The notes: generated by a model from the letters alone, not told the origin. A stretch of DNA of 32,738 nucleotides from Fonticula-like sp. SCN 57-25 (GCA_001724245.1 MEDX01000041.1:1-32738), one strand, 5' to 3'. Counted from the stretch's first letter, positions 1-32,738 are shown. Program-made: numbers and translations.

Positions 1-982
1 CCCTTGCGCGACCAGTAGCGGTACTCGTCGCCGCGCTTGTGCAGCTGGATGCGCTCGCCGTCAAGCTTTGGCTCAATAAAGTACTCCCCTATGCTGCGTC
101 AGCACTGCAAAGAGCAAAAAAATAACGCACCATTGAGCTTTTCGACGATTTCGTTAAAGGGAACGCGCTGCGCAAACATAGGCTTGAAAGGGGCAAAAAT
201 CTGGATGGCGTGCTCCGCGAGGCGCACGCTGCGGTCCTTTAGCTCGCGGCAGACGCGCTGCAGGTCAGAGCAGACGTGGTAGAGGTCCAGGGCGTCGGGG
301 TGAAAGGCGGCAAGCACAGTGTTTTCGCTCATGCCAAGCTTCAAGTCGCGCAGAATTATTCGAATAATCCACTTTGTTTCAACGGCGGTGCACTGGCTGA
401 CGAGCGTGCGCATGATGCGCTCCTTGTCGCCGCGGTCGACCGAGGTGTTGAGAGTGTCGAGAACGTCGTTCACCTGCTCGACGGTGAGGCGGCCGACGGG
501 GGCGCAGCGCAGGCGAAGCACGCCAAAGGCAACTGCAGCAAAGTCACCGGCATCCTAAAGGAAGGTAAATATAAGAAAGAACTAAAAAACCAAGCCCGTG
601 CCTGGGAAGATGTCGGGCGCCGCCAGTGAAGCAAGCTCTGGGCGTCAGGGCTGTCTCTGGCGAGATTAAGCGCCTGAATGATACTTTTTGCAAGAACAGT
701 TTCCTTCATGCCATACGTCGTGCGCTCAACGTCAAGCTGATGAAATTGTTAGTGCACAACAGCGTTGCTCGAGTGGCGCACCTGCGGCACCAGCAGTCGC
801 ATGAGCGGATACGAATCGTCGTCCTGGTCTTTCCACTCGGTGATGCACTGCTCCACCGCCTGCCGCTTCTGAGCACCGTGCAGCTGCCCAAGCCTCTCCA
901 TGACAGCGGCAACCTGCGCAAAGAGCGTGCGGCGAGCAAGCCCCCCGACCTTGCCAGGAGACGGCGCACTCGCCGACGCCAT
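1..982 (-). CDS. LIG4: DNA ligase IV, N-terminal part (continues past the left edge); exons 982-782, 736-602, 554-131, 88-<1
   Basis: Spliced translation gives YGMKETVLAK...DAGDFAAVAFGVLRLRC, KWIIRIILRDLKLG, FHPDALDLY, FKPMFAQR and adenylation motif I EPKLDGERIQLHK...YWSRKG, typical of ligase IV. Intron 601-555 is GC-AG. Confidence 0.93.
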
Positions 983-1017
983 CCCTGAAAGTTGGTAATG
1001 CTGACTGTCACAAGTGC

Positions 1018-1030
1018 TTTCCCGCGCAAA
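1018..1030. promoter_or_regulatory. Candidate overlapping double E2F-type site (TTTCCCGCGCAAA) in the 53-bp LIG4/METTL21 divergent spacer
   Basis: Contains TTTCCCGC on + and TTTGCGCG on -, resembling the E2F consensus TTTSSCGC; position between two divergent ATGs. Confidence 0.4.
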
Positions 1031-1035
1031 TCATC

Positions 1036-1692
1036 ATGGACCCACCCGCGCGATGGGAGACACACTTGCTTGACGAGTACGAGTTCCGCTTCCGGCCGCC
1101 GGGGGAGGAGGAAGAAGTGTCTTTGCGCGTCAAGCAGATCCCTTCGACAGAGTTCCTTGGGCACTCTGTGTGGGACGTCGGGATCTGGTCGTGCAACTAT
1201 GTCCAGCGGGATGTGGCGCTTCGGCGGGCGTTCGCATCGCACGCAAGGGTGCTGGAGCTGGGAGCTGGCTGCGGCCTGCTTGGCATAGTGGCGGGGTGCT
1301 ATGGCGCGCGTGTTACCGCGACCGATCTAGAAGGCGTGATGCCCTTGCTGCGCGCAAACATTGACGCGCACGAGGCGCTCGTGCGGCAGCATGGCGGGTC
1401 AATTGTTTCCGAAACATTAGAATGGGGGCCCGGCCCAGCAATGCCATTCGATGTTGTATTAGGGGCAGACTTGGTTTATTACGAGGAGAATGTGGAGCCG
1501 CTCGTGGCTACGCTGCTACGCGTGTGCACGGAAAAGACTATTGTCTTGCTCGCGCATGAGAATCGCCAGCCTGCAGTGCAGCGCCAGGCCCTTGCGGCCC
1601 TTTCGCCGCACTTTCGCTATAACAAGTTGGACATGAAGAAGGAAGGTGGCGAAAATTTTGAAGCATACTTTCTCAAGCGCAAGCGTAGCTGA
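1036..1692 (+). CDS. Protein-lysine methyltransferase, METTL21/Methyltransf_16 family (single exon, 218 aa)
   Basis: GHSVWD, motif I VLELGAGCGLLG, ATDL, LEWG and FDVVLGADLVY (DxxY) motifs. Confidence 0.9.
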   Translation: MDPPARWETHLLDEYEFRFRPPGEEEEVSLRVKQIPSTEFLGHSVWDVGIWSCNYVQRDVALRRAFASHARVLELGAGCGLLGIVAGCYGARVTATDLEGVMPLLRANIDAHEALVRQHGGSIVSETLEWGPGPAMPFDVVLGADLVYYEENVEPLVATLLRVCTEKTIVLLAHENRQPAVQRQALAALSPHFRYNKLDMKKEGGENFEAYFLKRKRS

Positions 1693-1812
1693 GGCGCTCC
1701 TGTGTATATTTGTATCATTGGCAATGCAATTTGGGGTCTCGTTCTGGCTACTTTATTGTGTTGACAATGTATGCCATGCAATATGCGTGGTATGTCCAGT
1801 CGACGTGCAGGC

Positions 1813-2599
1813 TTACGCGTCGAGGTTGAGCTCGCTCACCTCGGCCTCGGTGAGCTCACCAGAGCGGACGATGACGACGTCCTTGGTGGGCCTATCGCGG
1901 ACAGTCTCGAGGTTCTCAATGGTGGTGGCGATGTCCATGCCCTAAACCAGTGTTATTACAAGCGCAAAATAACACAAAGATAATAACGTACGCTGACGAC
2001 CTTGCCGAAGACGACATGGCGGCCATCGAGCCAGGAGGTGGTGACAGTGGTGATGAAGAACTGCGAGCCGTTCGTGTTGGGGCCGGCGTTGGCCATGCTG
2101 AGGACGCCGGGGCCAGTGTGCTTAAGCTTGAAGTTCTGCAAAATATAAATTCAGCACAACGCTCTAGTCAATAAAAAGCCGAACCTCGTCGGCAAAGCGC
2201 TCGCCGTAGATGGACTTGCCGCCGGTGCCGTCGCCCTTGGTAAAATCACCGCCCTGGAGCATGAACGAGCGAATCACGCGGTGGAACTTGGAGCCCTCAT
2301 AACCAAAGCCATTCTAAAAACAACAAGAAATGTACAATATGTGGCAGTTAACACCATAGCCAAGCTGGAATTGGCCGTACCTCGCCAGTGCAGAGAGCGC
2401 GGAAGTTCTCAACCGTCTTGGGGACGGTCTTGCCGTAGAGACCCATGACGATGCGGCCGGCATCCTCATCTCCGATCTTGATGTCAAAGTAGACATAGTT
2501 GGTGATAGCCGGGCCCTTGGCGGCGGCAGCAAAGCTGAGGAGCGCAAGCACGCCGAGGGAGAGGAGGGCGATGCGCCCGACCCAGGTAGAACCCGCCAT
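1813..2599 (-). CDS. PPIB: Cyclophilin B-type peptidyl-prolyl isomerase with signal peptide; exons 2599-2381, 2313-2185, 2135-1992, 1941-1813
   Basis: Hydrophobic N-terminus followed by [72 protein letters not shown]; three GT-AG introns restore frame. Confidence 0.95.
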
Positions 2600-2727
2600 C
2601 TTGAGGAGAGACTTCAGGTTGTCGAAAACATGCTACCCCGATGAGGCTCGACGGTGTTAAATAGCGTCACCCTGATCGTAAGCGTGACAAACAATCAAAA
2701 CCGGGTCCTGGTGCTGACCCCCGCGCG

Positions 2728-3653
2728 ATGCTGCGACCTGCGTGCGGTACCTTGTTACTCCTCTGCCTTTTCGCCAGTCATGCCTTTGCAGAGTCTAGCG
2801 GTATGTCTTTTGGCCTGCTGTTTACCTCTTTGCTGACGCTTCTTTGCAAGCGTTCGTCAACATGACGGCCGCCCTTGGCTCGTCCTCGGCCTACTATGGC
2901 GCGCAGGTCCCCTTTGACGTGGTCGTCCTCTTGTCGGACGATGTTGTCGATAGCAACCCGGCGAGCTGCGACCCGGACTGCCGTATGGTGACGCTGGCCG
3001 TCAACATTGCGCTCTCGCCGCCGCCTGTCTCGAATCTCGAGCTCATGTCGGCTATGGCCGTCACGTTGCGCGGCGTGCCGTGCAAGCTCAACATCCTGTA
3101 CGCAAGTGAGGTTTGCCAACCATGCGCTAACTGCACTGTGCTTCAGAATTGGCCAATTCGAGTGCCCCTACTATGTTGCGCCATTCCCGAGTGGGACGCC
3201 GCTCACCATTCATGGCGATCTCTCGGTCAATGGTCTCGAGTGCGTAGCTCTGCCCAGTCTTGTATCCCGAACTGACACACGCGGCAGGGACACGCACGGC
3301 GTCACTGATTTCCCTCTCCAGCTTACCTTTCGCGCAATTACCCTTGCCCTGGAAGATGCCAAGGTGACTGCCCCCGCTGTCCCACTTACGATCACCGGCT
3401 ACACGCCCGTGACATATACCTATGAAAGCACCAGCATGCCATTGTGCGTAGCAGCCCTGCGTGCCATTGGCCCCGTTACTAAACATATGTGTCACTTTGC
3501 AGTACATATTCGTCAGCCAGTATTCATGCTACGGTGATCAGTGTCAGCGTCATCGGCATGGTGCTCAGCACGGCCGTCCTCGCCGTCACCATCCTCTTTG
3601 TTGTCTTTTGGTATGATATCAAGGGATTTATTTCGGGCCCCGGCTCGGTGTAG
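2728..3653 (+). CDS. Uncharacterised single-pass (type I) membrane protein, ~255 aa; exons 2728-2800, 2851-3097, 3147-3443, 3503-3653
   Basis: Three introns with good donors and branch points join into one ORF with signal peptide MLRPACGTLLLLCLFASHAFA, a Cys-containing ectodomain, TM helix VISVSVIGMVLSTAVLAVTILFVVFW and a short tail. Confidence 0.75.
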
Positions 3654-3694
3654 ACCGCCCCGTGCCGTCTTTTATATGCTACATATCCAGGACA

Positions 3695-4469
3695 CTAGCT
3701 AGGAACAGAGTCCGCCGTCTCGACCGCCGCCTCTTCCTGGCATGCCCTCTTTCCACCCTTACTGTACACGTGAAATGTCATGGCCCCCTTGCCGTAGCTG
3801 TACCGTCCCCGATGCGACAATGTCCACTCTGAAGTCTCGGGCAACTGCCGCGTCGTCGTGATGACGCGCGCGGTCGGCTTGAGCGAGCCGATCGCCGAGC
3901 TCAGCTTGGCCATGCAGTCATCGTCGAGGCACGTGGTCGATACAAAGACAACATCCGCGGTCGATTGCCAGTCAGTCTCAAACATGTCGCCCTCCTTGAC
4001 AGTGACCACGCGCTGGCCGCCCACAAAGAAGCGCTCGGCAGCGCGCTGGCCGGCCTCGGCGAGCGGGCGAACCAGCTCGATGCCGAGGCAGGACTCGGCT
4101 CCGAGATGAGCTGCCACACAAAGGGCCTTGCCGGTGCCACAGCCGAGATCTACAAAACGCTCACCGCACTTGAAAGCCGCCGGGCCATTGAGCAAAGAAG
4201 CAAAGGACTGCACATTCACCTCTCCGTACGTCAGGCCGGGGAGCCGCTCACTGTGCGGTGCAAAAGCTGAGCGCAGACAATCGCAACCATGGAATCGCGT
4301 ACTTTTTTGAGCGTCGCTCCTCCTGCGCCTTTGACGCAATAAGGTACCCGTCTATCCCCTCAAAAGCCGCATTCACCGCTCCGAGCAGCTGCTCGTTCTC
4401 TTCTCCCCGCTCGATCGACCCAAAGTGGTCGTCGTCACGCGCTCTCTTGGCGGCAGCACGCGGCGCCAT
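3695..4469 (-). CDS. Stand-alone DOT1-like class I SAM methyltransferase, ~240 aa; exons 4469-4303, 4250-3695
   Basis: LTYGEV and FVDLGCGTGK, GIEL, EGDM, ADVVFVSTTC motifs characteristic of the DOT1 domain; one 52-nt intron. Confidence 0.8.
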
Positions 4470-4505
4470 TCAAATGCTGACTGTACATCATCGCTTGGCC
4501 AAACA

Positions 4506-6971
4506 ATGAAGGTGCGGATAGGCCGAGCACTCGGCCGCGGCGGCGAAGGGCGCGTCTATGAGGTGCGCAAAATATTAGGTTTTTGGTGTGCTAACGTGGG
4601 GCATAGGCCACGGACGAGGAGACGGGCGCGTCAGTTGCGGTTAAAAACGTGAAATACGATGCCGGCAAGGAGGATCAGTTAGCTCGCGACAAGGCCGTGT
4701 ACCAAAAGCTCGTCTCACTGCGGCACCCGCATCTAGTGGAGCATCTTGACGTGTGCAGCCTGTCTGATACGCGCTTGCGGATTACGATGGAGCTTTGCAC
4801 TGGAGGCTCTCTGCTCGATGCCATGAAGCGTACGCGTGCAGCCCCGCGCTTCTCCGACACTCATCCAGTGTAGTGCTTGATCGACCGCTGGGCGCGCAAG
4901 AGATCGCCGTCGCGCTCTACAGCGCATGTAGCGCGCTTTCCTTTCTTCACTCTGTTGGTTTTCTCCACCGCGATGTCAAGGCGAGCAACCTGCTCATGAC
5001 GCTCGATGGCACGGTCAAGCTTGGTGCGCCTCATTGACCTTCTTTCCAATGTCTAACGATGCGCAGCCGACTTTGGCGCTAGCACAAACGCGGAGCGCTC
5101 AAGGCACAGCACGTATGCTGGGACGCCGTACTGGATGGCGCCCGAGCTGCTCGTCGCGCAGCACGGCGCCGAGGCCACGTACGACGCCAAGGTCGACATC
5201 TGGTCGCTCGGAATCACGGCCATCGAGCTCGCGACAACGGAGCCCCCGCTCGCGTCACTAGCACCGCTACAGGCCGCGTTCAGGATACCAGTAGATGAGC
5301 CGCCACGGCTCCAATCCGCCGACAAGCCGTACGTGAAATATAAGACGAAGTTATGTGACTGACTTGTGCAGTCTGGCCGACTTTGTGGCGAGTTGCTTGG
5401 TGAAAGACGCGTCGGAGCGCCCGTCCGCCGACGCACTTTTAAATGTACGATTTTATTTATTTATATTTGGTTGCTAACTGTTTAAAAGACGGCTTTTTTG
5501 GTCGACGCCCGACGTCTCCCGCTTACACTGCTTGCGCCACTTGCCGTGCGCGTCAAAGACGCACGCCAAGCCTTTGTTTCCCGCATGGAAGCGCAGGAAA
5601 CGAACGATGGTAAGCCAGATGATGCGGAAATTATTGGACTGAGTGATGCATTATCAATGGCGCCGTTGAATGAGACACAACAGACGACGCCCGCCGCTCA
5701 GATCGCCTCGTCAGGCCCGTTTCGCCTCACCGGACTTGTCTTACCATCCGACCGACTCGTGTATCACTGCGCCGACATTTTTGGTATGTTTTATGCTTTA
5801 TGTTCTTGTTTTACTAATGTGTGTGCAGATGGAACACTTCTTGTGGGCCACTCGGGCGGTCTGTCGGCCAAGTCGCTCGCCGCCGGCAACCGAAGTACGT
5901 CATATTGGTCGTAATAACGTTTTTTAACGTGTTTTGCAAAGCAATACACCCGCTTCTCACTGGAGTCGGCATTCGTCAAATATGCCTTTTGCCTGCCTAC
6001 GGCATCTGCCTCCTCGTTGTCGGTACTATTCACTTTTTAGTTTAACTTTCCTCTAACACGTGACCAGTTGACGGCCGGCGGTGGTCGCTCATGGTCATGT
6101 CGCTCGACAGCCTTCGTCACCACATTGACCGCGTCATCTTTTTCCGCGGCGGCTCTTCTGCACCGCTGCCATTTAAGAAGCACTCGGGGGCGATCGCCGT
6201 CGATGATGTTCCGAATAGGCCGATGTCGGTGCGCGTCATGTGGGGGGCGGACGCGGCGTACGTGCTTGTCACTGCGAGCCCGAGCGTACTTGTGCTGAGC
6301 TGGATGGCCGAGCCGCTGCACCGCTTCATGGTCGCATCGGTGCATCTTTCGGTAAATGCGATATTTTGAATGCTGAATTCATGTTATTATAGGCGAGGGA
6401 ATGGCCAGGCGCATCGCTGATCGCAGCCGACATTTCGAATTCGAGGCTCAACAGCGTTATAGGTACATTTTCATGGAAAGGGAATAGGCTTGGAATTTCC
6501 ATGGCTCACAAATTGCGCAAACGTGCTATTTTAGTGCGAGCAGAAAATGGCGTCTATCTCGCCGATCACAAGCTAATTAATGAGCGCCTTGTGGCTGGCG
6601 TCGACGGGTCCTCTGACTTTACCTGCGTATTTGATATGGTAACATCTCAAGGCATCTGCGCCACTGGTACGCCCCTCACGTGGCCAAACCACCGCTCACT
6701 TTGTATAGATGGCGTTTATTTGATGACGAGTGGGGAAGCGAGAAAGGCGTTTTCTTGGGCGGCGCCGCTGTCGGCCGCGGTCGTGCTGTGGCACGCGCGC
6801 TACTTTGTGTGCGTGCGCGGGTCGGCAATTGAAGTAGTTCGATCGTCGTCGGGTGACCTCGTGGCGCGCCTTGAAGTTGGGGAGGGCAGCGCCGTTGAGC
6901 TGATTGGGGCGACGAATGCTGGTCTGGTTCTTGTCGCGGTAAACGGCGGAATTGCCGCTCTCGTCTGCTAA
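4506..6971 (+). CDS. STE20-family MAP4K-like kinase with C-terminal CNH-like domain; 11 exons
   Basis: [44 protein letters not shown]-terminal WMAEPLHRFM resembles the CNH motif of MAP4Ks. Ten introns (donors 4563, 4830, 5024, 5328, 5445, 5784, 5895, 6023, 6340 or 6352, 6462) keep frame to TAA at 6969-6971. Confidence 0.82.
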
Positions 6972-7164
6972 TTTGCGAACTTTTATGCACTTTTGTATCA
7001 TTATATCATGCATCGCATTGGTGTCTGTTCCCGGATGCCTTGCAACTTTTTTGATGTCTACCAATGTGCGTGTACTTTTGTATAATATCATCATTTCTTG
7101 CATATTACCACCCTGAATGTGCGCGTATACAAATCCCATACATTCTACATACTACAAACAAAAT

Positions 7165-8707
7165 CTACGCCTCGCTGCGGTGCACGCCGGTCCAGCCAGC
7201 GCGCTCAAAGTTCTTTGGCGCCCACAGCTGGAGCAGCCTCGTCGGCGTCTTGTGCGATTCGGACAAGACCGCCTGCGGCAGCAGCGTCTCGATGGCTTTG
7301 TAGATGAAGGACGGCTTGTCCGACGCCGCGCTCGATGGCTTGATAAAGTCAAACACGCAGTCGGGGCTGCGCTGGTGCCGAATCTCAATCTCGTGCAGCG
7401 GCATCTTGCGGAACATGAGCAGCATGAGCTTGGAGCAGTTGAAGAGCGGCGACGGCACATTCGACATGTTGTTGTCGCGGTTCAAGCGGATCCAGCACAG
7501 GTTTTCAACGAGGCGGAAGCTCCACTTTTCGGCAACTTGCAGCATGTCCGCAACAAGGCGCTTGTCCGTCCACACGAAGAGGAAGCCGTTCACGCACAGG
7601 TCCTGAATAGGAAGCGTCGACTATAAATAAGGAGCATTAGGATTGCTATGAGGGGCATGGAAAATATCGACAATGTTCGCACCAATTCCTTCATGGAGAT
7701 GGACCCGGCCGGCGGCGAAGGGTCGTCGCCGAGGTGGATAGGCGCATCAATGTAGATGCCCTGGTAGTTATTGCCAAGCTTCTTGACGGTGGCCTTGTCC
7801 AGCGTCGGCAGCGGGGCCTCGAGGTAGCGGAACGCGCTCGGCTCGACCTTGGCGGTGCCAAACGGCTTGATGATGTGCGCCCACGAGAGGGGCAGCGGGT
7901 ACGAGGGGATCTTGGTGTACGTCGGCACGGACGGGTCTACATGGCTAATGTACACGTGGTCATGTGATTAGACAAGGGAAATAATTAGGAAAAGCGCGCG
8001 AACCGGACGCGGCGCTTGATGGTGAACAGGTTGCCATTGCGATCCGCAAGCTGGTAGTGCATGATCTTGTTGACTGTGAAAAGTTTGGTTTAGCATACAT
8101 AAATATTACAACAACTGTGTACGTACCAAGCCTGACGGGGCGCTCAGTTTCGCGGCGCTTGCGTGACCCGCCAGAGCCGCCGCGGCGGCCGGATGCCGGA
8201 ACCTCGTCGTCGTCGGCATCGTCACCAAAGAACATGTACTCGTCCATTCCGTCCCTGTCCATCGCCGTCAATACACAAAACAACCCCAATTATCACGCAC
8301 TCGTCAAAGCCAAGCTGCTCGTTCCAAAATTCCTCGTCGTCCTCGTTGTAGTCATTGCGGAGCGCGAGGGCAACCGTGTAGCTCGATGTCCGCTTGAAAA
8401 TCTCGTTCAGCTGGTCCTCATCTAGTGTGTCAACCGCGGGTTCCTTCCCCTGTCCGTCCGACTCTGCAGCTTCGCCGGCCGACGACTGAGAGGCAGCCGT
8501 CTTTGACGAGCCGATCTCGGTCTGGTACTCCTCCAGCGCCTGAAACTTTTTCATGATAGCCTCGACGCTCTCATCGTCCTCGACATAGCCGACAAAGTGC
8601 GACGCGCTGCAAAACATTTCGCGCGTCAGAGAACGACGCAACTGTTGTGGAGCGTACCTGATCTTGTGCGGCGCCGCCTTTTTCGTGCGACGCGCCGGCC
8701 TTGACAT
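7165..8707 (-). CDS. MT-A70 family protein, AMT6/7 (MTA9/MetB)-like non-catalytic subunit of the ApT DNA 6mA methyltransferase, ~423 aa; exons 8707-8658, 8606-8301, 8254-8127, 8073-8004, 7944-7683, 7620-7165
   Basis: Five introns join four separate ORF-track pieces in frame (1272 nt). C-terminal GFLFVWTDK, VENLCW, SKLMLLMFRK, EIRHQRSPDCVFDF, KPSFIYKAIETLLP, LLQLWA...RAGW match the MTA9/AMT6/7 clade as recalled; catalytic DPPW is replaced by DAPI. Confidence 0.82.
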
Positions 8708-8766
8708 GTTGGCGCGCTCGTTGCAAGGATGAAAACGGTTCAAAGTGCGCGCCCTTTGCCCCCCGA

Positions 8767-8816
8767 TGATTGGCTGGCTTTTTTCTTCCGCTCACGTGAT
8801 TGGTCCGTCCCCGCCT
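8767..8816. promoter_or_regulatory. Composite bidirectional promoter: two TGATTGG (CCAAT) boxes 30 bp apart, TCACGTGA E-box and a GC box
   Basis: TGATTGG at 8767-8773 and 8797-8803, TCACGTGA at 8792-8799, CCCCGCC at 8809-8815, all within the 137-bp spacer between the MT-A70 and ACAD8 ATGs. Confidence 0.55.
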
Positions 8817-8844
8817 CTTGTCCTCTTGAAGCATCCTCTCTGCC

Positions 8845-10257
8845 ATGGCGCTGCGCATCGTGTCAAACAGGCTTGGCGGCGCTGTTCGCCGCGTGGGCGT
8901 CCGTTCGCTAACCATTTGCAACCGTATGACGGCAATATTTCACTTGTTGTATATTTGTCTAACCAACATTTCCGCTTCAGCTGCCGATGGGCTCGGCGAG
9001 GACCAGCGCATGGTGCAGGAGACTGCTCTGAGCTTTGCCAAGTCCGAGCTCGCGCCGAATATGTCCAAGTGGGACGAGGACGAGCACTGGGACGCGGAGA
9101 CGTTCCGCAAGCTTGGTAGCCTTGGATTCGCCGGCATCTACGCCAAGGAGGAGTTTGGCGGTACGGGACTGTCGCGTCTGGACGCGTCGGTCATCTTTGA
9201 GGCGCTCTCGACGGGGTGTGTGAGCACGACCGCCTTCCTCTCCATTCACAAGTGCGCAATAATAGAGTGATAAATATACGTTGCTAACATTGATACAGCA
9301 TGTGCGTGTGGATGATTGACCAGTTTGGCACGCCCGAGCAGCGCGCCAAGTACCTCCCCGACATGTGTGCCATGAAGGTACGCCCGTTTTGCTTCTCTCA
9401 TCGAGCTCACCGCCACACAGCTGTTTGGCTCATACTGCCTGACTGAGCCCGGCGCTGGCAGCGACGCTGCTTCTCTTTCGACGAGCGCTGTCCGCGACGG
9501 CAACGAGTTTGTCCTGAACGGCTCCAAGATGTTCATCTCTGGCGGCGGCTTCAGCGACATTTACGTCGTCATGGTGCGGACCGGCAAGCCCGGCCCCAAG
9601 GGCATCTCGTGCGTTATCGTGGAAAAGGACACGCCCGGCCTGTCGTTTGGCAAGAAGGAGCGCAAGGTCGGGTGGAACTCGCAGCCGACGCGCGCTGTCA
9701 TGTTTGAGGACTGCCGCATCCCGGTGGACAACCTCGTCGGCGAGGAGGGCCAGGGCTTTTCCATCGCCATGAAGGGCCTCGACGGCGGGCGCATCAATAT
9801 TGCGTCGTGCAGCCTGGGAGGCGCGCAGTCGTCGCTCGAGCAGGCGATCGAGTACCAAAAGGTCCGCAAGCAGTTTGGCCAGCCGCTCGCCAACTTCCAG
9901 GTGCGCGTCCAAACATAGACTGCACGCGATTCTGACATTTTGTACTTTTAGCACAACCAATTCAAGTTGGCCGAGATGGCGTCCGACATTGTCGCGTCGC
10001 GCCTGATTGTGCGCCAGGCTGCAACGCTGCTGGACGCGGGCGAGCCGACGGCCACGGCCTACTGCGCCATGGCCAAGCTCTTTGCCACGGACAAGTGCTT
10101 TGACGTGTGCAACCGCGCTCTGCAGCTCTTTGGCGGCTACGGCTACCTCAAGGACACGGCCGTGCAGCAGTACATGCGCGACACGCGCGTGCACCAAATC
10201 CTCGAGGGAACCAACGAGGTCATGCGCATGCTCGTGAGCCGCGAGCTCTTGAAGTAG
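8845..10257 (+). CDS. ACAD8: Isobutyryl-CoA dehydrogenase, mitochondrial; exons 8845-8923, 8981-9251, 9299-9377, 9421-9900, 9952-10257
   Basis: Arg-rich presequence; [77 protein letters not shown] match ACAD8. Confidence 0.93.
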
Positions 10258-10299
10258 AGTTTCAAGTGTGCAACAATAGAATAGACAGTTTTGTCAATG

Positions 10300-10317
10300 A
10301 ATAAAGATTGATTTATT
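10300..10317. terminator. Back-to-back poly(A) signals (AATAAA on each strand) between convergent ACAD8 and hemerythrin genes
   Basis: AATAAA at 10300-10305 and TTTATT at 10312-10317 within a 72-bp intergenic gap. Confidence 0.5.
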
Positions 10318-10329
10318 TGACTATGAGAG

Positions 10330-10830
10330 CTACATGGTGGTTTGCGGCGCGCGCGCGGCCGTCGTGTCCAGCGGCGGGAGCTTGAGCGACTGCTTGGTGT
10401 GCATGAACGTCACGCCGCGGCGGCGCAGCTCCTCGCTGGTCGTGTTCTGGCGAATCATCGGAAACAACTCCTCCTCTTCTTCTCTGACGTGGCGCTTGAC
10501 GTTCTTTTCAAGCTCGAGCAGCAGCCTGTCAAACTCGGGATCCGCGAAATCCACCTTGGTGATCTCCTTGAGCAACGTGGCGACGGCCTTGTGGTCCTGC
10601 ACGGCGCGCCGCGCCTTGGTGTGGGTCGCCGCGCTCACGCCCTCCAGGATCGGGTAGACAAGCCGCTCCTCAAGCGCCGAGTGCATTTCGAGCTCGTTGG
10701 TGAGCTTGGTGAAAAGCCTCTCCCGGTCCGAGCCCTTGTCCTTGAGCTGCGCAAACAGGTGGTTCATGCCCTCATGCTCGGCGGCAAGAATGTTGAGAAG
10801 ATCCGGCTCTTGATGACTCGGAGCGCCCAT
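10330..10830 (-). CDS. Hemerythrin-like / HHE cation-binding domain protein (single exon, 166 aa)
   Basis: Repeated H...HxxxE ligand pattern: LAAEH, MHSALEERLVYP, VQDH, RHVREEEEELFP. Confidence 0.9.
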   Translation of the reverse strand: MGAPSHQEPDLLNILAAEHEGMNHLFAQLKDKGSDRERLFTKLTNELEMHSALEERLVYPILEGVSAATHTKARRAVQDHKAVATLLKEITKVDFADPEFDRLLLELEKNVKRHVREEEEELFPMIRQNTTSEELRRRGVTFMHTKQSLKLPPLDTTAARAPQTTM

Positions 10831-13960: not shown

Positions 13961-14048
13961 GGCGAAAATTGCTTGTTTGAATTGGGTGCCAATGTGCCAC
14001 GCACTGCCATCGAAAACTCCTTGTTTAGTTTGCGCGCCTTATTTGACG

Positions 14049-14090: not shown

Positions 14091-14091
14091 G

Positions 14092-21035: not shown

Positions 21036-21116
21036 CCTCGGCTGGCCGCGGCTCGCAGCGGCTCGCCGGCTAAATGCTGATGTCACGAAATCAACTTGCA
21101 AACTGCAAACTTCACC

Positions 21117-23432: not shown

Positions 23433-23519
23433 ACACTCTTTTTTGTATACACTTTCACTTTTGGGTTCAATGCATGTGCTGTATTATCTATCTACAAAAA
23501 ATTGGCATTATCTATCGCC

Positions 23520-24475
23520 CTAGCTGCTCGCTTCGGGCGCGTCCAGGTCCACGCCGTGCTCCGTGACGAGGATGTGCTCGACGTACCGCAGCCACCCCTC
23601 GGTCACCATAGCCTGCGACGACACAAAGGAGGCCTCCAGCAGTGAGTACGCCTTGCGTAACCGTGCGAGCTCGGTGGGAAACTCGTCGTCCTTGGCTTCA
23701 TTCTTGACCAGCATGGACGCCATGACGGTCTGTGCTGACGGGTAGCCCTTTGGCACAAATAGAGTCAGAATGAGGGCGGGAAGAAGGGAAGGCGCACCTT
23801 GTCGGCGGCCTGCTTAAAGTGATGATAGGCCTCCTGGAGATCGGCCTTGGGGACAAACTCGCCGGTCGCGAGCACAATGCCCGTGTAATAGTTGGCTAGT
23901 GTATGGCCCTGTGCATACAGAGTTAGACAGCGAGGGGAAGGGAGAGGGACATGCCTGAGCGCTGGCCATGCGGAGCAGCTCGACCATCCGCGTGGTGTCG
24001 ACCTGGATGCCAGGATGCGAGCCCTAGAGATCAGTGTGAGAAGCTGAGAAACAGCATTGACATACGTACCTTGCGGTGAATCATTGCCAGCTCGTACTGA
24101 GCGGCGGCAATGTTGCCGCCGTACGCCGCCTGATCATAGAGCTCGCGCGCCCTACGGTACTCTTGGTGAGCGTGCATGCCGCGGTGTCCATCGCGCCCAC
24201 GCGTACCTATTCATTCCTTTGTCGTCCTTGACCTGTCCCCGCACGTACATTGCCGCCGCGCTGTGCGCCGCCGCGTGGCTCCCGAGAGCCGCCGCCTTCT
24301 CAAGCAGCTTTATCTTCTCCTCCGGCTTCAAGTTTGCGTTTCCCGCCTCCTTGACCAACCTATCCGCGACATCCCCTTCGCCTGCCGTTGGGGCATCGCC
24401 GCCGCCGATCGACTGCGCCACCTTCCCCGTCCACAGAAACCGCGCCGCGCCGCCGGCACCAAAGCCGCCCCGCAT
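23520..24475 (-). CDS. Sel1-like repeat protein, possibly mitochondrial, >=252 aa; exons 24475(or 24514/24523/24532)-24207, 24151-24070, 24023-23955, 23908-23798, 23747-23520
   Basis: Repeats LLEKAAALGSHAAAH, LYDQAAYGGNIAAAQYELA, LLRMASAQGHTLANYYTG, HFKQAADKGYPSAQ match the Sel1 consensus; intron 23954-23909 is GC-AG. Confidence 0.82.
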
Positions 24476-27185
24476 GGCACTCGCGGCCGCCGCGCCGACG
24501 CTGCGCGCGCTCATCGCCCGCATCACCGACATTGAGCCGGGAACGTACAACTTTACGCTGTGCGAGACGTTTGCAACTGCCAATGTACAGCGGCACAAGT
24601 TTATGGACATTGACGAGCAGCGGACCTCTGAGGGCCTGTGGGCGTACGCGAGCGCCCTTTAGTGGGTATATGGCTGCTAACGCTCTGTGGAACGGTAGGC
24701 TTGTCGAAAAGGAGCAGATCCACGCCAAGTTTGCCAGGGCGCGCGATCTCGAGCGGCTCGCCACCGGCTTTGATACCATCCTCTCGCGGTCGTCGCTGCC
24801 CGTGTCGGTCAAGCGCAATGTCGCAGGCATAGTGTGCATTCTCATGGAGCTGGAGAGCACGGCGGACCCGCGGCTGACCCGACCCGACGACGCTCTGCCG
24901 GCCCCCGCCGTCGCCGCCGAGGAATACGTCTACGAGGTGCGCTGAAATCAGTTACTGTCGGACCGCTAACATGGCGAGCGCAGCCGCCGAGCGACGCCGA
25001 CTCGTTTTCCACTGCAGCCAGCAGCGACGACGACGACTGGCTAAGTGATGCCGAAGATGCTACTGCCGCCAAGTCGTCTGCCGAGCACGGTCACGTCCAG
25101 GACATGTCGGCCCTACCGCTGTACGACCGCGGCGCGTACGAGCACTCTGCGTCAGCGCAGCACCAAATGGAAGCCTCGCGTGACGCGCAGTATTGGCCGC
25201 AGGCACTGCGCCCGTTTGGCGCTCCGCTCTCCGAGTGGGACGCGATGCGCGAGGCCGTCCTGCAGCTCCAGTCGGGCGCGTCGCTCCTCTTTGCCGCGTC
25301 GCCGTCGGGCGACATCTCCGTCCACCGCGGCGCCGCCTTTGCCGACGTGTCGCCCGACGTTGCGCACGCGTCGCTGTCGCGCGTCTGCCCCGCCGCGCGC
25401 GCCGCCGCTCGCATCGAGCGCTTTTGCGGGTGGCACCGCGGCTCAGACAATGCGGTCATGTCGGCGCTCGTGGCGGCGGTGGCCGAGACGCTTCGGTCGT
25501 GCCGCGGCGACGGCCTTGGCCCAATTGAGCGCGCGCTTGTTGAGCAGGAGCGCATGGCCGCCGAAGTGCCGCCGCCGCCGGCGCAGCGCCTGCACGACTT
25601 TGTCGACAGGATCGTCGGGGCAATGTCGACCACCGTCGCGTTCGCCGCCGTCATCGACCGCATGGAAGGACGCGTGGCGCCCAACGCAGGTGCGCATATA
25701 ATGATACTTTATGTATAGCACTTTTGGACTCTTTTTGACACTTTTCGGTGCTTTTCAGCCGCTCATGAGCAAGCTCGCGTTGTTGTGGATGTTCTTCTTG
25801 ACCAACTTGAGGCCGAGCACGCCGCAGATGACCGCCTTCGATTCGACGCCGTCGCACGCGCCCTTCTCGACTGCCTCGCCGCGTATCTGAGCGAGCTTGA
25901 ATCGTGGCTCGCCGGCCGCGGCAGCCGCGCCGTCCCACTTCACCTGTCGGCCGCCTCTCCGTCCCTGCGCACAAGCGCGTCGATTCGCGAGATGGTCTCT
26001 GTTCGTGGCGCCTTTCCCGCGTGCATGTCGGCGTCGGCAACGAGCTGGATGGAGGCCGGTCGCTCGTGCGCGCTGCTGACGCGCCTCTCGCGCGAAGCCG
26101 TGCACCGCTCGCTGGCGCCCTTTTTGTTGCCGCGCCGCCTCGTGGACGCGCTCGGCGACGGCGCCGCGGCGGTTGACGCGCTGTGGCGTGCGCCCGCGCC
26201 GACCGTACTTTTAACCGCCGCACTGACGACCATTGCGAGCGACGCGGCAGCGGCGGTCGGCGTACCGATGGCCAACTTGCTCGCCTCGCACACGTCGGTG
26301 CGCGGCGCCATCGCAGCGCTCCGCAGCGTCTTCCTCATGACGTCGCCGACGATGGGCGCCTTTGCCGCCGAGGTCTTTTCGTTGCTCGACGCGGCGGGCG
26401 GCGACGCCAAGCGCGTCCCAAACCTCACGCTGCGCTTTCGCGAACACTTTTCAGGCGAGCTCGGCGAGTTTGCCGACCGCTGCCTGGCCGAGATTGTTCC
26501 GGCTGGCGACCTCGCTGGAACCGCCAGCGACGCATACTATGGCCGCATCAACGTCATCATGGACGTGCCATGGCCTGGCGCGCTCATCGTCGATGATGCG
26601 CGGCTTGCTGTAGAGTACCGCGGGGCACAAGCAGTGCTGTTGGCAATGTCGGGCGCGCGCCGCGGGCTCGATGCAATGACAGTCGCGCGCGGCCAAAAGA
26701 ACGCAGCAACGCTGACAAGATATAAGGCGCGGTTCGATATGCTTGCCACGATTGTCGCGCTGCAAGAGTTTTATTCAGTTGGTGTTGTGCGGCCGCTGTG
26801 TGCGCAGGCCGACGCTGCATTTGGCGAAGCGGCGAATGCGCACGACTTTTTCCGCGTTCACGAGGCATTTGTCGCGTCGATCAGCGAGCGGTTCATGCTG
26901 GGCGCCAGTCAGCATGCGGCGCATGCGGCGCTCACGGCGATGCTCGGCGTCTGCAGGCGGTTTGGCGACGCATGTGCGCGCGAAAACATGGACAATGATG
27001 ATGATGTTATGGGAAAGTATGGCGCGTTCAGGGAGCACCGCGGGCAGTTGGTGGCGCAAGTGCAGCTGCTCAGCGACACAACTGGGAGAGAACACTGTAC
27101 GAAATGCTTTTTATTGTGTGTTTGCTGATGATGAATGATAGGGAAATCGCTTGCGGACGTTCTTTCCAGCGACATCAGCATATAA
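24474..27185 (+). CDS. TUBGCP5: Gamma-tubulin complex component 5, ~831 aa; exons 24474-24643, 24699-24936, 24984-25689, 25759-27096, 27142-27185
   Basis: N-terminal LRALIARIT...NFTLCETFATANVQRHKFMDID...LVEKEQIH resembles the GCP5 N-terminal helical domain; also QYW, SEWDAMREAVLQL, LRSVFLM and DVPWPGALIV (Spc97/98 family). Confidence 0.8.
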
Positions 27186-27312
27186 AATGCTCACTTTTGG
27201 CCCTGTTTTCGTCCCATTTTTTGACCCATTTTGTTCCATTTTGTTCATGTTTCCTATTCAAGTGTACATAATTACTGTATTAAACAAATGTATGGAAATC
27301 GCACAACACACT

Positions 27313-29094
27313 TTACTCGTCATCCGACATGGCATCGTCGTCCTTTTTCCCCGCCGCTGCGAGCTGCTCCTCCGCCTCTGCGCGCACCGCCGGGTCGAGC
27401 CTGTCCGAAAAGCGCTCGCGGACCGCCGAGATATCCCACGCGTTCCATACCGTGAGCGGCCCCTTGTCGCCCGCCGTCGCAACCAAGAACGCCGCGTCGG
27501 GCGCCACAGACGTATTAAACAGCTTGCCCTAAAACACACAGTCAGCACATGACTTCCAAATCAACAATAAAAAACGTACAATTCCGACGTTGCGCGAGTG
27601 AACGAGCGCCGGCCTCAAGTTTGTCGTGTCCCAGATCTTGACCGTCTGGTCAAACGACGCCGTGACCATGCAGTCAGTGATGAGCGGGTGAAAGTCAACT
27701 GTCGTGCACGCGCGGTCGTGCGCCTGCAGCCTAAACACGGAAGCCGCCTGCCCCGCCGTGTGGTTGCGCACATCAAACACCGTGACGGAACCGTCCTCGG
27801 CGGCGACAGCAAGGTACTGCGCGTTGTGCGGGTTCCACCGCAGGCTCTCGACGTCGGCGGTGACGGCCCAGCGCGCGACGGCGCCGGGGGCGCGCGTGTC
27901 CCACGCAGTTACCGCGTGGTCGTAGCCGCCCGCGGCCAGCACGGTCGTCTCGGTCGGGTTCCACCGGATGCTCTGCACCTTGTCGGCGTGGTGCGAGTAG
28001 ACAGCGACGGACTGCGCGGTCTTGAGGTCCCACAGGCGTATCGTCTTGTCGGCCGAGCAGGACGCGAGGAGGTTGCGGTGCGCGGCGTTCCAGGCGAGGC
28101 CGAGGACCGCGTCAGTGTGGCCGGTGAGCTCGGCGGCGGAGACGTCCTTGCTCTTGCCCTTCTTGCCCTTCTTGCCGCTCTTGGCGGGGGCAGCGGGGGC
28201 AGTGCCGCGGGCGAGCACAGTGTGAGGGAAGAGGGCATCGACAACGTCAAGATCCCAGATCTCGATCTCGGGCTCGAACGTTCCGATCGCAGCAAAGTTG
28301 CCTATTTACACGCGCAATTCGGCGCACATATGAGTAACGCGCATTCGAAACTGAGGCCAAAAACGTACCGAGCGCAGTGCCGTCCGTCGAGGGCTCGTAG
28401 TTGATCCACTCGAGGCAGAGCGGGAACGACGGGAGCATCACGTCGTGATGTGTGTACAGGTTGTCATCGGCCTCTTCGTAAATGTTCACTTCGAGGTTGG
28501 AAATGTCGTCTTCCGTCTTGACAGAGAGAACGAGGCGATCCGACGGCAGGATGGTGAGATCATCATCCTCGTCGTCGCTGTTCTCCTGCATCGTAATATA
28601 GGGATCCTCCTCGTTGGACTGGTGGAACTGCAGACCCTTAAGGCTGGTCAGTAGCGGAAGCTCTGTCCGTGTAGTGTGAGTGGATCATGATGCCGAAAGG
28701 GGGATGCCCGCGTACCGCCGTCCTCGTTATAGTCGTCAAAGCGGTACTCTGCAAGCTCGGGCGGGATGGCATTGTTTGACGCGACGGCGGCCATCGCCGC
28801 CTGCTTGACCGCCTTGCTCTCCTCCTTCACCTGCTTCTTGAGCGCCTTGGCCGCCTTGGTGGCCGCCGCCGTGGCCACCGCCACCGCCTCGGCATCCTCC
28901 TCGTCCATCTCCTCCTCGTCGTCGTCCTCAAAGTCGACGTCCTTTTCGTCGGCGAGCCGCTGCGCCTGCTCGTCCGCGAGCGACGTGTACTGCCGGATCT
29001 GCTCCTCTGTCGGCTGGAAACGCGCGGGCGAGGCGCGCGCGACGCCGCGGCGAACCCACCCGACCGCGGTGATCATGGCGCCGGTCGATTCCAT
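27313..29094 (-). CDS. PWP1: Periodic tryptophan protein 1 (WD40); 4 exons
   Basis: MITAVGWVRRGVA start, acidic region, DPYI, LEVNIYEEADDNLYTHHDVMLPSFPLCLEW, GTFEPEIEIWDLD, GHTDAVLGLAWN; three GT-AG introns. Confidence 0.93.
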
Positions 29095-29617
29095 GGCCGG
29101 CGAGGTAGGTGCGTGGCCGTGGTTCGATCGAATGCGGCACACATGGCCAACGCGCCTGCCACAGTCCTGTGGATTGGAATTCGACCACAATGCTGTGGCA
29201 GTTTCCGTTCTCGGAACAAAAGAAAACAATCGACCAAAGCGAGCCGACTTGTTTTTTCTCTCTCTGCGTCGTGCGCTGCCGCAGCGTAGCGCTTGGCAGG
29301 CTAAAGGGAAAGCACTTCAGAGGGCTCGCCGTGCGACGGATAGACAACCAGTAAGGCGATATTTGCGTTGTGCTGATCGGGACTCTGCAATCGTCGAGGT
29401 TTGATTCTGAATCAATGTACGAAGCACGGGGGTCATGGGGCGTCACCATGGGCTGACGATGGTGATATAGACAGTTTACATCGACGTTGAAAGGAGACGT
29501 AGGACAAGGAAAGCAGTGCTGCGCTGCCTTCTTGCCTTTATTCCTGGATCTCGCCGTTTGACATAAATAGTCGCGCCGAATCCTTTTTGACCCACACAGA
29601 TCGCATTACCGGGCATC

Positions 29618-30823
29618 ATGGTGCGTTACCTAGCGCGGCATGAGCCCCGCACTGACGTTGCGCTGCTTGCTGACCGCGATCCCAATAGTCCTCTTTTGCG
29701 CGCAATGTTGATCCGGAGGATCTCTACGTAAAGCTCGACCGGATCGGCAAGGGCTCCTTTGGCGAGGTTTTCAAAGGGTGCGCATGCCTGCTGCCGCAGC
29801 CTTGCGGTTTTCCGCCCTCGTGTTGCTAACTCTGCGGCGATCTCTTAGTATTGAAAAGGTGAGCAATATGCCCGTTGCTATCAAGATCATTGATCTTGAG
29901 GCCGCCGAGGATGAGATTGAAGACATTCAGCAGGAGATTGCCGTCCTTGCGCGCATCGACTCGCCCTTTGTGACCAAATACTATGGCTCGTACCTCAAGG
30001 ACGCGCGCATCTGGATTGTGATGGAGTACCTTGCCGGCGGCTCGTGCCTTGACCTGATGAAGCCCGGCCCCTTTGAGGAGATTTTTATCCAGATTATTCT
30101 TCGCGAGATCCTCCGGGGCCTCGAGTACCTCCACGACGAGGGCAAATTGCACCGCGACATCAAGGCCGCCAACATTCTTCTCTCGGCGGCGGGCGAAGTG
30201 AAGCTCGCCGACTTTGGCGTCTCTGGGCAGCTCACCGCGACCATGTCCAAGAAGCACTCGTTTGTCGGCACGCCGTTCTGGATGGCGCCCGAGGTGATCA
30301 AGCAGTCTGGCTACGACCAAAAGGCCGACATTTGGTCGCTCGGCATCACCGCCATTGAGCTTGCCAAGGGCGAGCCGCCGTACGCCGACCTGCACCCGAT
30401 GCGCGTCCTCTTCCTCATCCCCAAGAACGACCCGCCAGTGCTCGACGGCAACTTTTCAAAAGCCTTCAAGGAGTTTGTCGCGCTCTGCACCCAAAAGGAC
30501 GCTGACAAGCGCCCGACGGCCAAGGAGCTGCTCAAACACCGCTTCATCAAGGCGGCCCGCAAGACGTCGTACTTGACCGAGCTGATCGAGCGCTACGAGC
30601 GGTGGCTCGCAGAGGGCGGGTCAAAGGACTCGGACAGCAGCGACGACGACGACGACGAGGGGGGGGACGAGGACGGAGAGGACTGGGACTTTGGCACCGT
30701 CACGGCAAAGTCGGCCGCTGCAAAGGGGCTCACGGTACGCACGAAAAAGCTGTTTTAGGTGGGTAAATTTGTGGCAATTTGCTTACTTTTGGTTGGTTTT
30801 CTTTTGATTTATAGACTGCCTGA
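29618..30823 (+). CDS. GCK-III (STK24/25/26-like) STE20 kinase, ~328 aa; exons 29618-29620, 29689-29777, 29849-30734, 30815-30823
   Basis: [87 protein letters not shown], then acidic tail with DWDF. First and last exons are inferred from splice signals. Confidence 0.9.
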
Positions 30824-31384
30824 GCAAGCGAACCTTGGCCTGGCGTGACTGCCCGTGATAAAAGCAAGCCATCGTCTAGAGAAGAAGAGGGCGAAAACGA
30901 TAATTATGTAATTATAGCCGCTGTTTTTCCTTCTTTTTCCCCCAAACATTCATCCTCCTCCTCATCCTCGCTGCCATGACTCGCCACGCTTCTCGCTACC
31001 TTAATCCCCATGCGCTTGATTTCTTTATTTTCGCCTGTCCCAGTATTAAACACTGTTTAACATGATCACTTTTTGCCTATTATGAGATGAGACCAAAAGG
31101 AAAGGCCAAGTACACATGGGTTCATATTGAAAGACCATCAAGTAGGCATTGGAAGGCCACCATTTTCATTGAAAAGGGCACCTTTTGCATCCACTTTGGT
31201 CACAATTAGTTTGATTGAAATGTGACCCATGCTCACAAAACTACTCAAAAGCCCATTATAATGACCATTTTCGCTGCCATTGCCTCTTTCATGGCATGCA
31301 TGAAATGCGCATATAAAATAATAATGTGTTTATTGACGTGAACTTTACCGCCGTATGAATACAAAACAGACCAGAAACGCCTCT

Positions 31385-32738
31385 CTAGACGCTGTCGCAG
31401 TTGAGCGAAGCGCCCGCGAGCCCCGCGCTCTCGACGTCAGAGTCCATAGCAGTGCTCGCTTTAAATGCCACCGCGACCAGCTCGAATGGCGTGTCAGCAA
31501 GTTCGGGGCGCGTGGCGCGAAGGTGGCCAAAGAGCTGGCGGACGAGAGTCGACTTTTCGACGCGGAGGACAATGCGCGAACCATCTTTAAAAAAGAGTTT
31601 TAGTGAGCAAATTTGGCATAAAAAGGTATCAAAAAAGGCACACAACCATGTCCAAGTAACAATGAAACCGCAAATTAATCATGTTCAAGCAATAATATAA
31701 TAGATTTTCCTATTCAACGCACCCTGGAATCTGATCTGGATCCTTGTCGAATTGGGCGCCCCCACCGGCGGCTCCGACAACACAACCGCCTTTGCCGTCA
31801 TTGACGGGTGACTTTCCTGCTTCACCACCTGCTCAACATTGCCCTTTTCATGTCCATTAACGTCCTTTTCATGCTCAACATTGCCACTTTCCTGACCAAT
31901 AACACTGCTTCCATGCCCATTAACATTGCTTTCCGACGCCTCCTGCCTCGCCTGCGTCGACCTAAACTCTGCCTCTGACGCCTCGATAGCGCGCATGAGC
32001 TGCTCCTCCTCGCTCATCTCGCTAATTCTTGGCCGCTTTGTCTCGCCCGCGGGCGCCGTGTACGTCGCGCTCTCCTGCGAGTGCGTCGCCAGAAACTCGT
32101 CGAGCGTCGCCATCAGCTCATCGCGATCGACCGCATACTCGATGAGGAGGACGCGCTCGCGCGTGCGCGGGTCCAGCACGGCAATGTGCGGGAAGCTCGC
32201 GTTGCCGTACGTGGACTGGTACTCGACGCCGTCGGGCAGCGTGTGGCCGTACTGGACGAAAACAAAGCGCGAAAGGATCACAGACTTGATCGCGCCATCG
32301 CGCCACAGATCAAGGTTCTGGGTCTCGCACGCAAACTCGGCGGGGTTCATGAGGTTGACCATGAGCCAGCGGCCGCGCTTGAGGGCTTCGGAAAAGGCGG
32401 CGGAGAGGGGGCCGGAAGTGTACATCAGATCGGTGGGGGGGCGGTACAGATCGGCGAGGCCGGCGGGCTGATCGCCGACAGAGGGCGAGGCGGCGCCAAA
32501 GGCGGAGACGTGGCGGGAGGTCGAAGGTGCGGTGCGCATGCGGCCCTGCGCAACTGGAAAGATGACGCGCAGCATCAGCAACCAGACGAGCATTGGAATT
32601 CGACAATTACGCACCGATGCCAAAGCCGGAACCGTAGGGGTCAGGGTCCATGAGGCGAGCGCGCTGAGGGGCGATGGGCGCGCGAACATACTCTTCGTCG
32701 TCCACAGGGATGGGATCGCGGGGGGCAGAGGGGCGGGA
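31385..32738 (-). CDS. UBX domain protein, UBXN7/Ubx5-like (5' end outside window); exons >32738-32614, 32553-31723, 31584-31385
   Basis: EEYVRAPI, LADLYRPPTDLM, WLMVNL...EFACETQNLDLW (UAS domain), FPHIAVLDPRT, UIM SEEEQLMRAIEAS, UBX TRIQIRFQDGSRIV. Confidence 0.88.

Follow-up and report, generated by a model that had tools for sequence, protein, structure and literature searches.

The 19 predicted protein-coding genes on a contig of Fonticula-like sp. SCN 57-25 (MEDX01000041.1; the whole stretch of 32,738 nt that was analysed is referred to here as the window) alternate strictly in orientation, following the order -,+,-,+ ... - with a strand switch at 18 of the 18 junctions between neighbours. 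The best explanation, to which a probability of roughly 0.6 is assigned, is that the run is real locally and is likely an unusually long case of the known preference of compact genomes for divergent and convergent neighbours, probably without being obligate. A sequence-only reading of the same DNA had described both the 19 genes and their strict alternation, and independent gene models reproduced them.

The window is essentially a complete nuclear contig of an uncultured opisthokont protist, recognizable as eukaryotic nuclear DNA because its open reading frames (ORFs) are interrupted by short introns, and has a G+C content of 60%. Coding sequence accounts for 79.3% of the whole window, introns for 10.2% and spacers for approximately 10.5%. 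The resulting density (19 genes per 32.7 kb, or 29 per 50 kb) compares with a median of 16 genes per 50 kb given for Capsaspora in the available text of PMC4773876. The window's sequence is also present in bioreactor and wastewater metagenome contigs from separate studies, and a strain that is 2-6% divergent is present in an aquatic metagenome. The four runs compared all consist of DNA contigs; in run X1 the contigs of this organism have a word depth of approximately 14-15, and run X4 contains the identical sequence.

The distances between genes (numbered as in Table 1) agree with all those given in the sequence-only reading. At the nine divergent junctions, the gaps from ATG to ATG are 53, 128, 36, 137, 753, 131 and 81 bp, an overlap, and 523 bp, whereas the stop-to-stop gaps at the nine convergent junctions are 120, 41, 193, 72, 388, 73, 87, 127 and 561 bp, reproducing the earlier range of 41-561 bp. 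Short gaps prevail in both classes, with 7 of 9 divergent gaps at or below 137 bp and 7 of 9 convergent gaps at or below 193 bp. Each of the nine divergent pairs joins oppositely oriented neighbours, 5' end to 5' end, at an ATG-to-ATG distance within 0-753 bp. In the available text of PMC2871058 and PMC4773876, the definition of a bidirectional pair requires that the transcription start sites lie within 1000 bp of each other; judging from the ATG positions, the start sites of the nine pairs probably fall within this distance unless 5' untranslated regions extend far into the neighbours. The paired genes are functionally unrelated by Pfam assignment and domain content, as had also been proposed.

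At a switching probability of 0.5, the odds of 18 switches at 18 junctions are 0.5^18 = 3.8e-6, in line with the value of about 2^-18 put forward previously for random and independent orientation, and they rise to 5.6e-4 at 0.66, the highest published switching value found. Neither figure is a clean p-value because the window was picked for being extreme; were it a random sample, the one-sided 95% lower bound on switching would be 0.85. A genome with ordinary orientation statistics, in which about half of the neighbours share a strand, could have yielded this contig as an outlier, given that approximately 250,000 windows were scanned and that an event of 4e-6 to 6e-4 per window can occur. However, only about 0.02 such runs are expected in a genome of 10,000 genes at 50% switching (about 2 at 66%), and the extremely short divergent spacers and the clean split of the spacers into two classes fit sharing as the norm; a chance run is highly improbable. 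The run speaks for a genuine bias of gene orientation in this genome but does not fix how strong that bias is.

The gene models are sequence predictions that draw on an ab initio finder, on Pfam and on insertions and deletions (indels) between strains. The Pfam scan covered 135 stop-to-stop ORFs selected for a coding-like GC pattern; 16 of the 19 genes had matches at E <= 1e-8, every one on the strand of the model, and the off-model matches were just three (E 0.004-0.006), all under the curated cut-offs. The spliced-gene finder combined a 3-periodic Markov model of coding sequence, for which the Pfam-supported ORFs served as the training set, with splice and branch matrices derived from its first pass, and its iteration 0 was used. 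Iterations 1 and 2 fused genes via antisense exons and were not used, and a first run with loose penalties fused everything. The output comprised 21 models, of which the 19 that correspond to the earlier reader's genes were kept. The other two lie antisense inside plus-strand models and were dropped (15558-16133 on the minus strand, scoring 9.8 inside a model scoring 254, and 25755-26338 on the minus strand, scoring 10.7 inside a model scoring 159). Manual 5' extensions supplied exon 1 of gene 4, which encodes the predicted signal peptide, and exons 1 and 2 of gene 13 (INTS6). Each of the 17 complete models opens with ATG and runs to a stop without internal stops.

The intron grammar was first read from the acyl-CoA dehydrogenase gene (43-57 nt, donor GTRCG, branch site CTRAC approximately 10-20 nt before YAG). 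The 54 introns of the window are very uniform, with a median of 52.5 nt and a donor that is mostly GTRCGY. Intron quality, ORF continuity and strain indels were the measures by which the unity of merged models was judged.

Several results weigh against a run that is both genuine and representative of the genome. When four gene-bearing segments were inverted in silico as a control, the finder merged 4 of 4 with their new same-strand neighbours; it merges tandem genes at these spacings, so that a lack of tandem predictions cannot by itself count as evidence. Strict donor rules split gene 6 into plus-strand models at 4506-5362 and 6091-6369, i.e., a tandem pair, and its C-terminal exon has no homologue and no usable Pfam family up to E=10. 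For gene 12, a comparison of the C-terminal ORF with focadhesin (BLASTP, two-sequence profile) gave E 0.2-2.4, which is not significant. Within the divergent spacers, the p-values for enrichment in AATCA and CCAATC would lose significance once corrected for how many words were tested, and the copy of a shared 12-mer in spacer 3 is altered in a related strain (C>A at 4477; runs X2 and X5). Additionally, one window chosen for being extreme cannot establish a genome-wide bias. An annotation artefact would mean that at least one model merges same-strand genes or that a gene was missed; besides the merging by the finder and the split of gene 6, it is favoured by the three genes without a family match at the Pfam cut-off (genes 4, 12 and 15) and by the spacers of 388-753 bp, which could house small or non-coding genes.

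Against such an artefact, intron scores separate the real introns from those that bridge genes. The bridging pseudo-introns of the inverted control (n=8) have donor-plus-acceptor scores of 3.6-9.5 and lengths of 69-200 nt, whereas 49 of 51 introns in the real models score 10.8-19.9 and are mostly 42-72 nt long. The two weak real introns, 5610-5714 in gene 6 and 23896-23950 in gene 15, both lie within continuous ORFs or domains. The former is 105 nt long, in frame and stop-free, and this segment may be coding, retained or optional; the latter (score 8.7) is inside a stop-free ORF bearing the Sel1 match, and the three other introns of gene 15 score 16.1-19.2. At the questioned join of gene 6, the last kinase exon is followed by an intron (5445-5488) with a score of 16.9, and ORF 5486-5911 continues stop-free from the kinase C-terminal extension into the C-terminal part. 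By-eye readings of this part as CNH-like, and of the extension as resembling that of gene 18, received no support from searches. Four canonical introns join the five exons of gene 4, and the introns joining the exons of gene 12 score 15.2, 16.5 and 18.2, the latter two (45 and 54 nt) linking its ORFs of 744, 222 and 479 codons. A Pfam search up to E=10 with exons of genes 4, 6, 12 and 15 yielded no usable match. With respect to missed genes, searches of the window for tRNA genes and, up to E=1, for Rfam families were negative, and the long spacers (388-753 bp) carry no coding signal or family, the 753-bp divergent spacer 5 also being without an Rfam match.

Variation between strains bears on the same models. 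The comparison used contigs of run X2, which are 2-6% divergent and for which 15 indels and 289 differences were reported. The listed indels avoid the predicted exons: 11 of 12 fall within predicted introns of genes 6, 7, 8 and 15, and the twelfth sits behind the first letter of the gene 8 stop codon and re-creates a stop, with non-coding positions making up 19% of the stretch compared. The introns of gene 6 contain four indel sites, the indels of gene 7 lie in introns 7603-7682 and 8255-8300, and in gene 15 the indels lie in intron 23730-23797. Counts of single-nucleotide polymorphisms (SNPs) rest on 40 listed of the 289 differences; 10 of 10 listed SNPs in exon 8981-9251 of gene 8 are synonymous in the model frame (best other frame 4 of 10), as are 8 of 11 in gene 12 (best other frame 6 of 11). 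Gene 10 is uninformative with 3 of 7 synonymous, and the remaining genes have at most 3 listed SNPs or are uninformative. Overall, strain variation lends strong support to the exon-intron structure and modest support to the strands, and an annotation artefact is very unlikely as the source of the alternation.

The spacers themselves fall into two classes. Convergent spacers are AT-rich (GC 0.18-0.51) and, although they total 1,662 bp or 5% of the window, carry 10 of its 17 TTTGTA/TACAAA words, whereas divergent spacers carry 0; the other 7 lie in introns or exons and are not clustered. They are also enriched in ATACAAAA/TTTTGTAT-type words. TTTGTA, AATAAA or ATTAAA is present on at least one strand in 8 of 9 convergent spacers, with such words on both strands in 4 and a different one per strand in 2 more, their role as signals being assumed. 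Divergent spacers have a GC of 0.44-0.59 and are the ones enriched in AATCA and CCAATC. The window has three exact matches to AATGCTGAYKKY, all of them plus-strand words of its three shortest divergent spacers and 33-44 nt upstream of the ATG of the plus-strand gene; with one mismatch, there are 7 matches compared with 2.0 expected. The word common to these spacers reads AATGCTGA(C/T)(T/G)GT at 997-1008, 4473-4484 and 21073-21084, with two copies identical over 12 bases, and is of the AATGCTGAC type. CCAAT-type and E-box words are typical of human bidirectional promoters. By their sequence, the spacers appear to alternate between terminator-like and promoter-like, which fits the alternation of the genes.

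The closest head-to-head pair is formed by genes 15 and 16, whose starts meet within 24473-24532. Gene 15 starts either at 24532, giving a 59-bp coding overlap, or at 24475, within a palindromic CATG common to both genes. Coding signal ahead of the next in-frame ATG supports 24474 as the start of gene 16, positions 24533-24601 scoring as coding in the plus frame. Because the predicted starts overlap, the 5' untranslated region of each gene would have to lie inside the other; at this pair and at the 36-bp spacer, at least one transcript would have to start inside or directly against the coding sequence of the neighbour.

A mechanism for the run can be proposed from this density, because of which each spacer must serve two genes. 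Each head-to-head spacer would act as a single shared nucleosome-free promoter region firing in both directions (7 of 9 at 0-137 bp), and each tail-to-tail spacer would act as a two-way poly(A) and termination zone (7 of 9 at 41-193 bp). In the closest pairs, the transcripts would overlap at their 5' ends. Same-strand junctions would be disfavoured, since a terminator and a promoter would have to stand side by side with the downstream promoter exposed to read-through, and alternation would be favoured for this reason. A chromatin reading based on nucleosomes and 6-methyladenine (6mA), as suggested by the sequence-only reading, would be speculative; the MT-A70 gene in the window (gene 7) is not evidence for nucleosome-phasing or 6mA ideas.

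This type of organisation is already known, and the window is a new, unusually pure example of it in a new lineage. Microsporidia and Giardia have ultra-compact genomes with few introns, in which promoters and transcript ends lie inside neighbouring genes. The window resembles them in having spacers too short for private promoters or untranslated regions, such that overlapping or bidirectional transcription would be expected, and differs from them in its approximately 54 introns in 19 genes. Table S1 of PMC2871058 gives approximately 49% same-strand neighbours for Encephalitozoon cuniculi; density alone therefore does not give alternation.

Another counterpart is the orientation bias of Nannochloropsis gaditana and other photosynthetic stramenopiles. 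According to the available text of PMC3566019, the genes of N. gaditana mostly diverge and converge, its longest alternating run, of 15 genes, was found twice, and the bias was read by the authors as compaction with shared bidirectional promoters, many pairs being less than 1 kb apart. Unlike N. gaditana, for which the maximum is that of the whole genome, the present case is a single 33-kb contig of an unrelated lineage (opisthokont), with 19 alternating genes cut at both ends and spacers mostly below 140 bp. Across the 64 species in Table S1 of PMC2871058, same-strand neighbours range from approximately 34% to 58% with Leishmania apart, as calculated here from columns that may be off; by the same arithmetic, the share is 34% in Cyanidioschyzon merolae, 35% in Monosiga brevicollis and 37% in Cryptococcus neoformans. 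These three small, dense genomes, one of them from a unicellular opisthokont, have an excess of divergent and convergent neighbours (63-66%) as the window does, but the window is far beyond their average, with odds as low as those calculated above for 66% switching.

Bidirectional promoters of mammals, Drosophila and the sponge Amphimedon likewise join pairs less than 1 kb apart, usually without shared function (available text of PMC4773876 and PMC2871058), and E-box enrichment is reported for the bidirectional promoters of Amphimedon (PMC4773876). CCAAT-type and E-box words are a further feature that the window has in common with such promoters. In those animals, however, 10-45% of genes are in such pairs, which stand among same-strand neighbours, whereas here 18 of 19 genes are paired back to back, across far shorter spacers and in one case with overlapping start codons.

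These comparisons also bear on a stronger explanation, namely a near-obligate architecture in which at least 85% of neighbours alternate genome-wide as a chain of bidirectional promoter and terminator units. The bound of 0.85 would apply if the window were random, the run of 19 already exceeds the N. gaditana maximum although both of its ends are cut by the contig ends, and the spacers leave little room for private promoters, being approximately one tenth as long as those of fungi, for which the available text of PMC2871058 gives means of 1343 bp for divergent and 688 bp for convergent spacers. Set against this are the selection of the window as extreme and the 64-species table, in which no genome exceeds approximately 66% switching, and a near-obligate architecture is considered doubtful. 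It is likewise unlikely that this is the most orientation-ordered nuclear genome yet, with nearly all genes in tail-to-tail pairs and in head-to-head pairs with promoters shorter than one nucleosome, and with same-strand neighbours that are mostly recent tandem duplicates. No eukaryote in which alternation is nearly total was retrieved by a full-text literature search, nor was any work on how genes are oriented in Fonticula or Parvularia. The claim of the sequence-only reading for bidirectional promoter and terminator units appears to hold locally, where nine head-to-head junctions, nine tail-to-tail junctions and two spacer classes fit it, and its obligate, genome-wide form is probably too strong. 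The genome-wide orientation bias is probably real but not obligate, in keeping with an unusually long run in a compact genome.

Table 1. Predicted genes and intergenic spacers along the window, with supporting evidence or sequence content.
Feature	Position	Strand	Evidence or content
Gene 1: DNA ligase N-terminal part, cut by contig end	1..982	-	Pfam DNA_ligase_A_N E 1.9e-21, ORF 102-554(-); domain start on ORF 752-1030(-); ATG at 982
Divergent spacer 1	983..1035, 53 bp	.	Contains AATGCTGACTGT at 997-1008
Gene 2: lysine methyltransferase (Methyltransf_16), one exon	1036..1692	+	Pfam E 3.9e-29
Convergent spacer 1	1693..1812, 120 bp, GC 0.47	.	TTTGTA on +, AATAAA on -
Gene 3: cyclophilin, signal-peptide-like start, 4 exons	1813..2599	-	Pfam Pro_isomerase E 5.5e-18 and 5.1e-6, two exon ORFs
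Divergent spacer 2	2600..2727, 128 bp		
Gene 4: no known family; predicted N-terminal signal peptide and C-terminal membrane helix, 5 exons	2728..3653	+	Stop-free joined ORF; introns score 11.2-17.1
Convergent spacer 2	3654..3694, 41 bp		
Gene 5: DOT1-like methyltransferase, 2 exons	3695..4469	-	Pfam DOT1 E 8.5e-10
Divergent spacer 3	4470..4505, 36 bp	.	Contains AATGCTGACTGT at 4473-4484
Gene 6: STE20-type protein kinase, ~330-residue C-terminal part, ~12 exons	4506..6971	+	Pfam Pkinase on three exon ORFs, best E 4.4e-15
Convergent spacer 3	6972..7164, 193 bp, GC 0.36	.	TTTGTA twice per strand
Gene 7: MT-A70 family methyltransferase-like, 6 exons	7165..8707	-	Pfam MT-A70 E 3.5e-12
Divergent spacer 4	8708..8844, 137 bp	.	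CACGTG flanked by two GATTGG words
Gene 8: acyl-CoA dehydrogenase, 5 exons	8845..10257	+	Pfam Acyl-CoA_dh_N, _M, _1, E 3e-23 to 8.5e-31
Convergent spacer 4	10258..10329, 72 bp, GC 0.29	.	AATAAA on both strands
Gene 9: hemerythrin-domain protein, one exon	10330..10830	-	Pfam Hemerythrin E 2.3e-17
Divergent spacer 5	10831..11583, 753 bp	.	Several CCAAT/ATTGG words
Gene 10: C2H2 zinc-finger protein, 5' end uncertain	11584..12249	+	Pfam zf-C2H2 E 3.2e-12
Convergent spacer 5	12250..12637, 388 bp, GC 0.42		
Gene 11: F-box plus WD40 protein, one exon	12638..13960	-	Pfam F-box-like E 8e-11, WD40 E 2.8e-14
Divergent spacer 6	13961..14091, 131 bp		
Gene 12: 1481-residue alanine-rich helical protein, predicted distant focadhesin/RST1 relative, 4 exons	14092..18680	+	ORFs and distant homologues
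Convergent spacer 6	18681..18753, 73 bp, GC 0.18		
Gene 13: Integrator subunit 6-like, 3 exons	18754..21035	-	Pfam INTS6 beta-barrel E 8.3e-17; VWA-type start in 5' exons; joined ORF stop-free
Divergent spacer 7	21036..21116, 81 bp	.	Contains AATGCTGATGTC at 21073-21084
Gene 14: DDX24/MAK5-type DEAD-box helicase, 3 exons	21117..23432	+	Pfam DEAD E 1.8e-37, Helicase_C E 4.6e-23
Convergent spacer 7	23433..23519, 87 bp, GC 0.33	.	TTTGTA on both strands
Gene 15: small Sel1-repeat-like, presequence-like start, 5 exons, internal exon borders uncertain	23520..24532	-	Pfam Sel1 E 3.5e-4, below cut-off
Gene 16: gamma-tubulin complex component, 5 exons, start overlaps gene 15 start	24474..27185	+	Pfam GCP_C_terminal E 1.9e-8
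Convergent spacer 8	27186..27312, 127 bp, GC 0.35		
Gene 17: WD40-repeat protein, acidic N-terminal part, 4 exons	27313..29094	-	Pfam WD40 E 2e-23
Divergent spacer 9	29095..29617, 523 bp		
Gene 18: STE20-type protein kinase, 3 or 4 exons, stop at 30758 or 30823	29618..30823	+	Pfam Pkinase E 7.7e-61
Convergent spacer 9	30824..31384, 561 bp, GC 0.43	.	No ORF with family
Gene 19: thioredoxin-like, UBX-like end, cut by contig end	31385..32738	-	Pfam Thioredoxin_7 E 8.9e-12

Several of the individual genes yielded further observations. For gene 12, a search of 1.84 billion representatives brought up just two outside relatives (1770 and 1786 aa; E 2.3e-7 and 3.4e-4); both bear the Pfam domains DUF3730 and Focadhesin, and they match the N-terminal ORF only, around DUF3730. 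From this similarity, gene 12 is predicted to encode a very divergent focadhesin/RST1-like protein. The nearest named relatives of gene 14 are DDX24/MAK5 helicases of early-diverging fungi (only 36-46% identity); the adjacent gene 13, with a VWA start and an INTS6 beta-barrel, is Integrator subunit 6-like. The model translation of gene 7 reads DAPI at the presumed position of the catalytic motif, which is of the DPPW type in active MT-A70 members, and the product of gene 7 may be a non-catalytic partner subunit.

Relatives of the gene 18 kinase were found in 80 metagenome loci at 54-83% identity, the best one being 83% identical across a portion of the query and 76% across almost its full length; the contig of the window is not one of the 80. 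Among the 29 fetched loci of at least 5 kb, none resembles the window in tetranucleotide use together with the intron signature. In 14 of these 29, a gene 19 homologue lies approximately 0.7-9 kb upstream of the gene 18 kinase orthologue (L008, L009, L014, L017, L018, L023, L027, L031, L035, L040, L044, L045, L057 and L068), and the alignments of the gene 19 relatives extend over the intron junction as far as residues 351-356 of 357. The two homologues are on the same strand in 8 of these loci and on opposite strands in 6; in the window, genes 18 and 19 adjoin each other in convergent orientation, the UBX-like gene being on the downstream side. The arrangement resembles an old linkage whose orientation has changed, bearing in mind that the 14 loci may not be independent lineages.

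A GCC-rich repeat at 19177-19210 in gene 13 draws many unrelated metagenome contigs, and the word depth of run X1 is 315 in the bin containing it compared with approximately 15-45 elsewhere. Joints between reads or contigs with sides of 21-35 letters, located mostly at this repeat (~19178-19210), were set aside as other organisms or repeats.

Should this be just a long run and the bias of the genome moderate, a tendency already known from compact genomes would extend to a new lineage. If alternation were genome-wide, the organism would provide a test case for the minimum size of a promoter serving two genes, for how termination at convergent genes 41-130 bp apart spares the messages of both, and for whether the avoidance of read-through can reshape gene order. 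It would additionally supply a strong strand prior for the annotation of metagenome-assembled eukaryotes, together with candidate bidirectional promoters of 36-137 bp.

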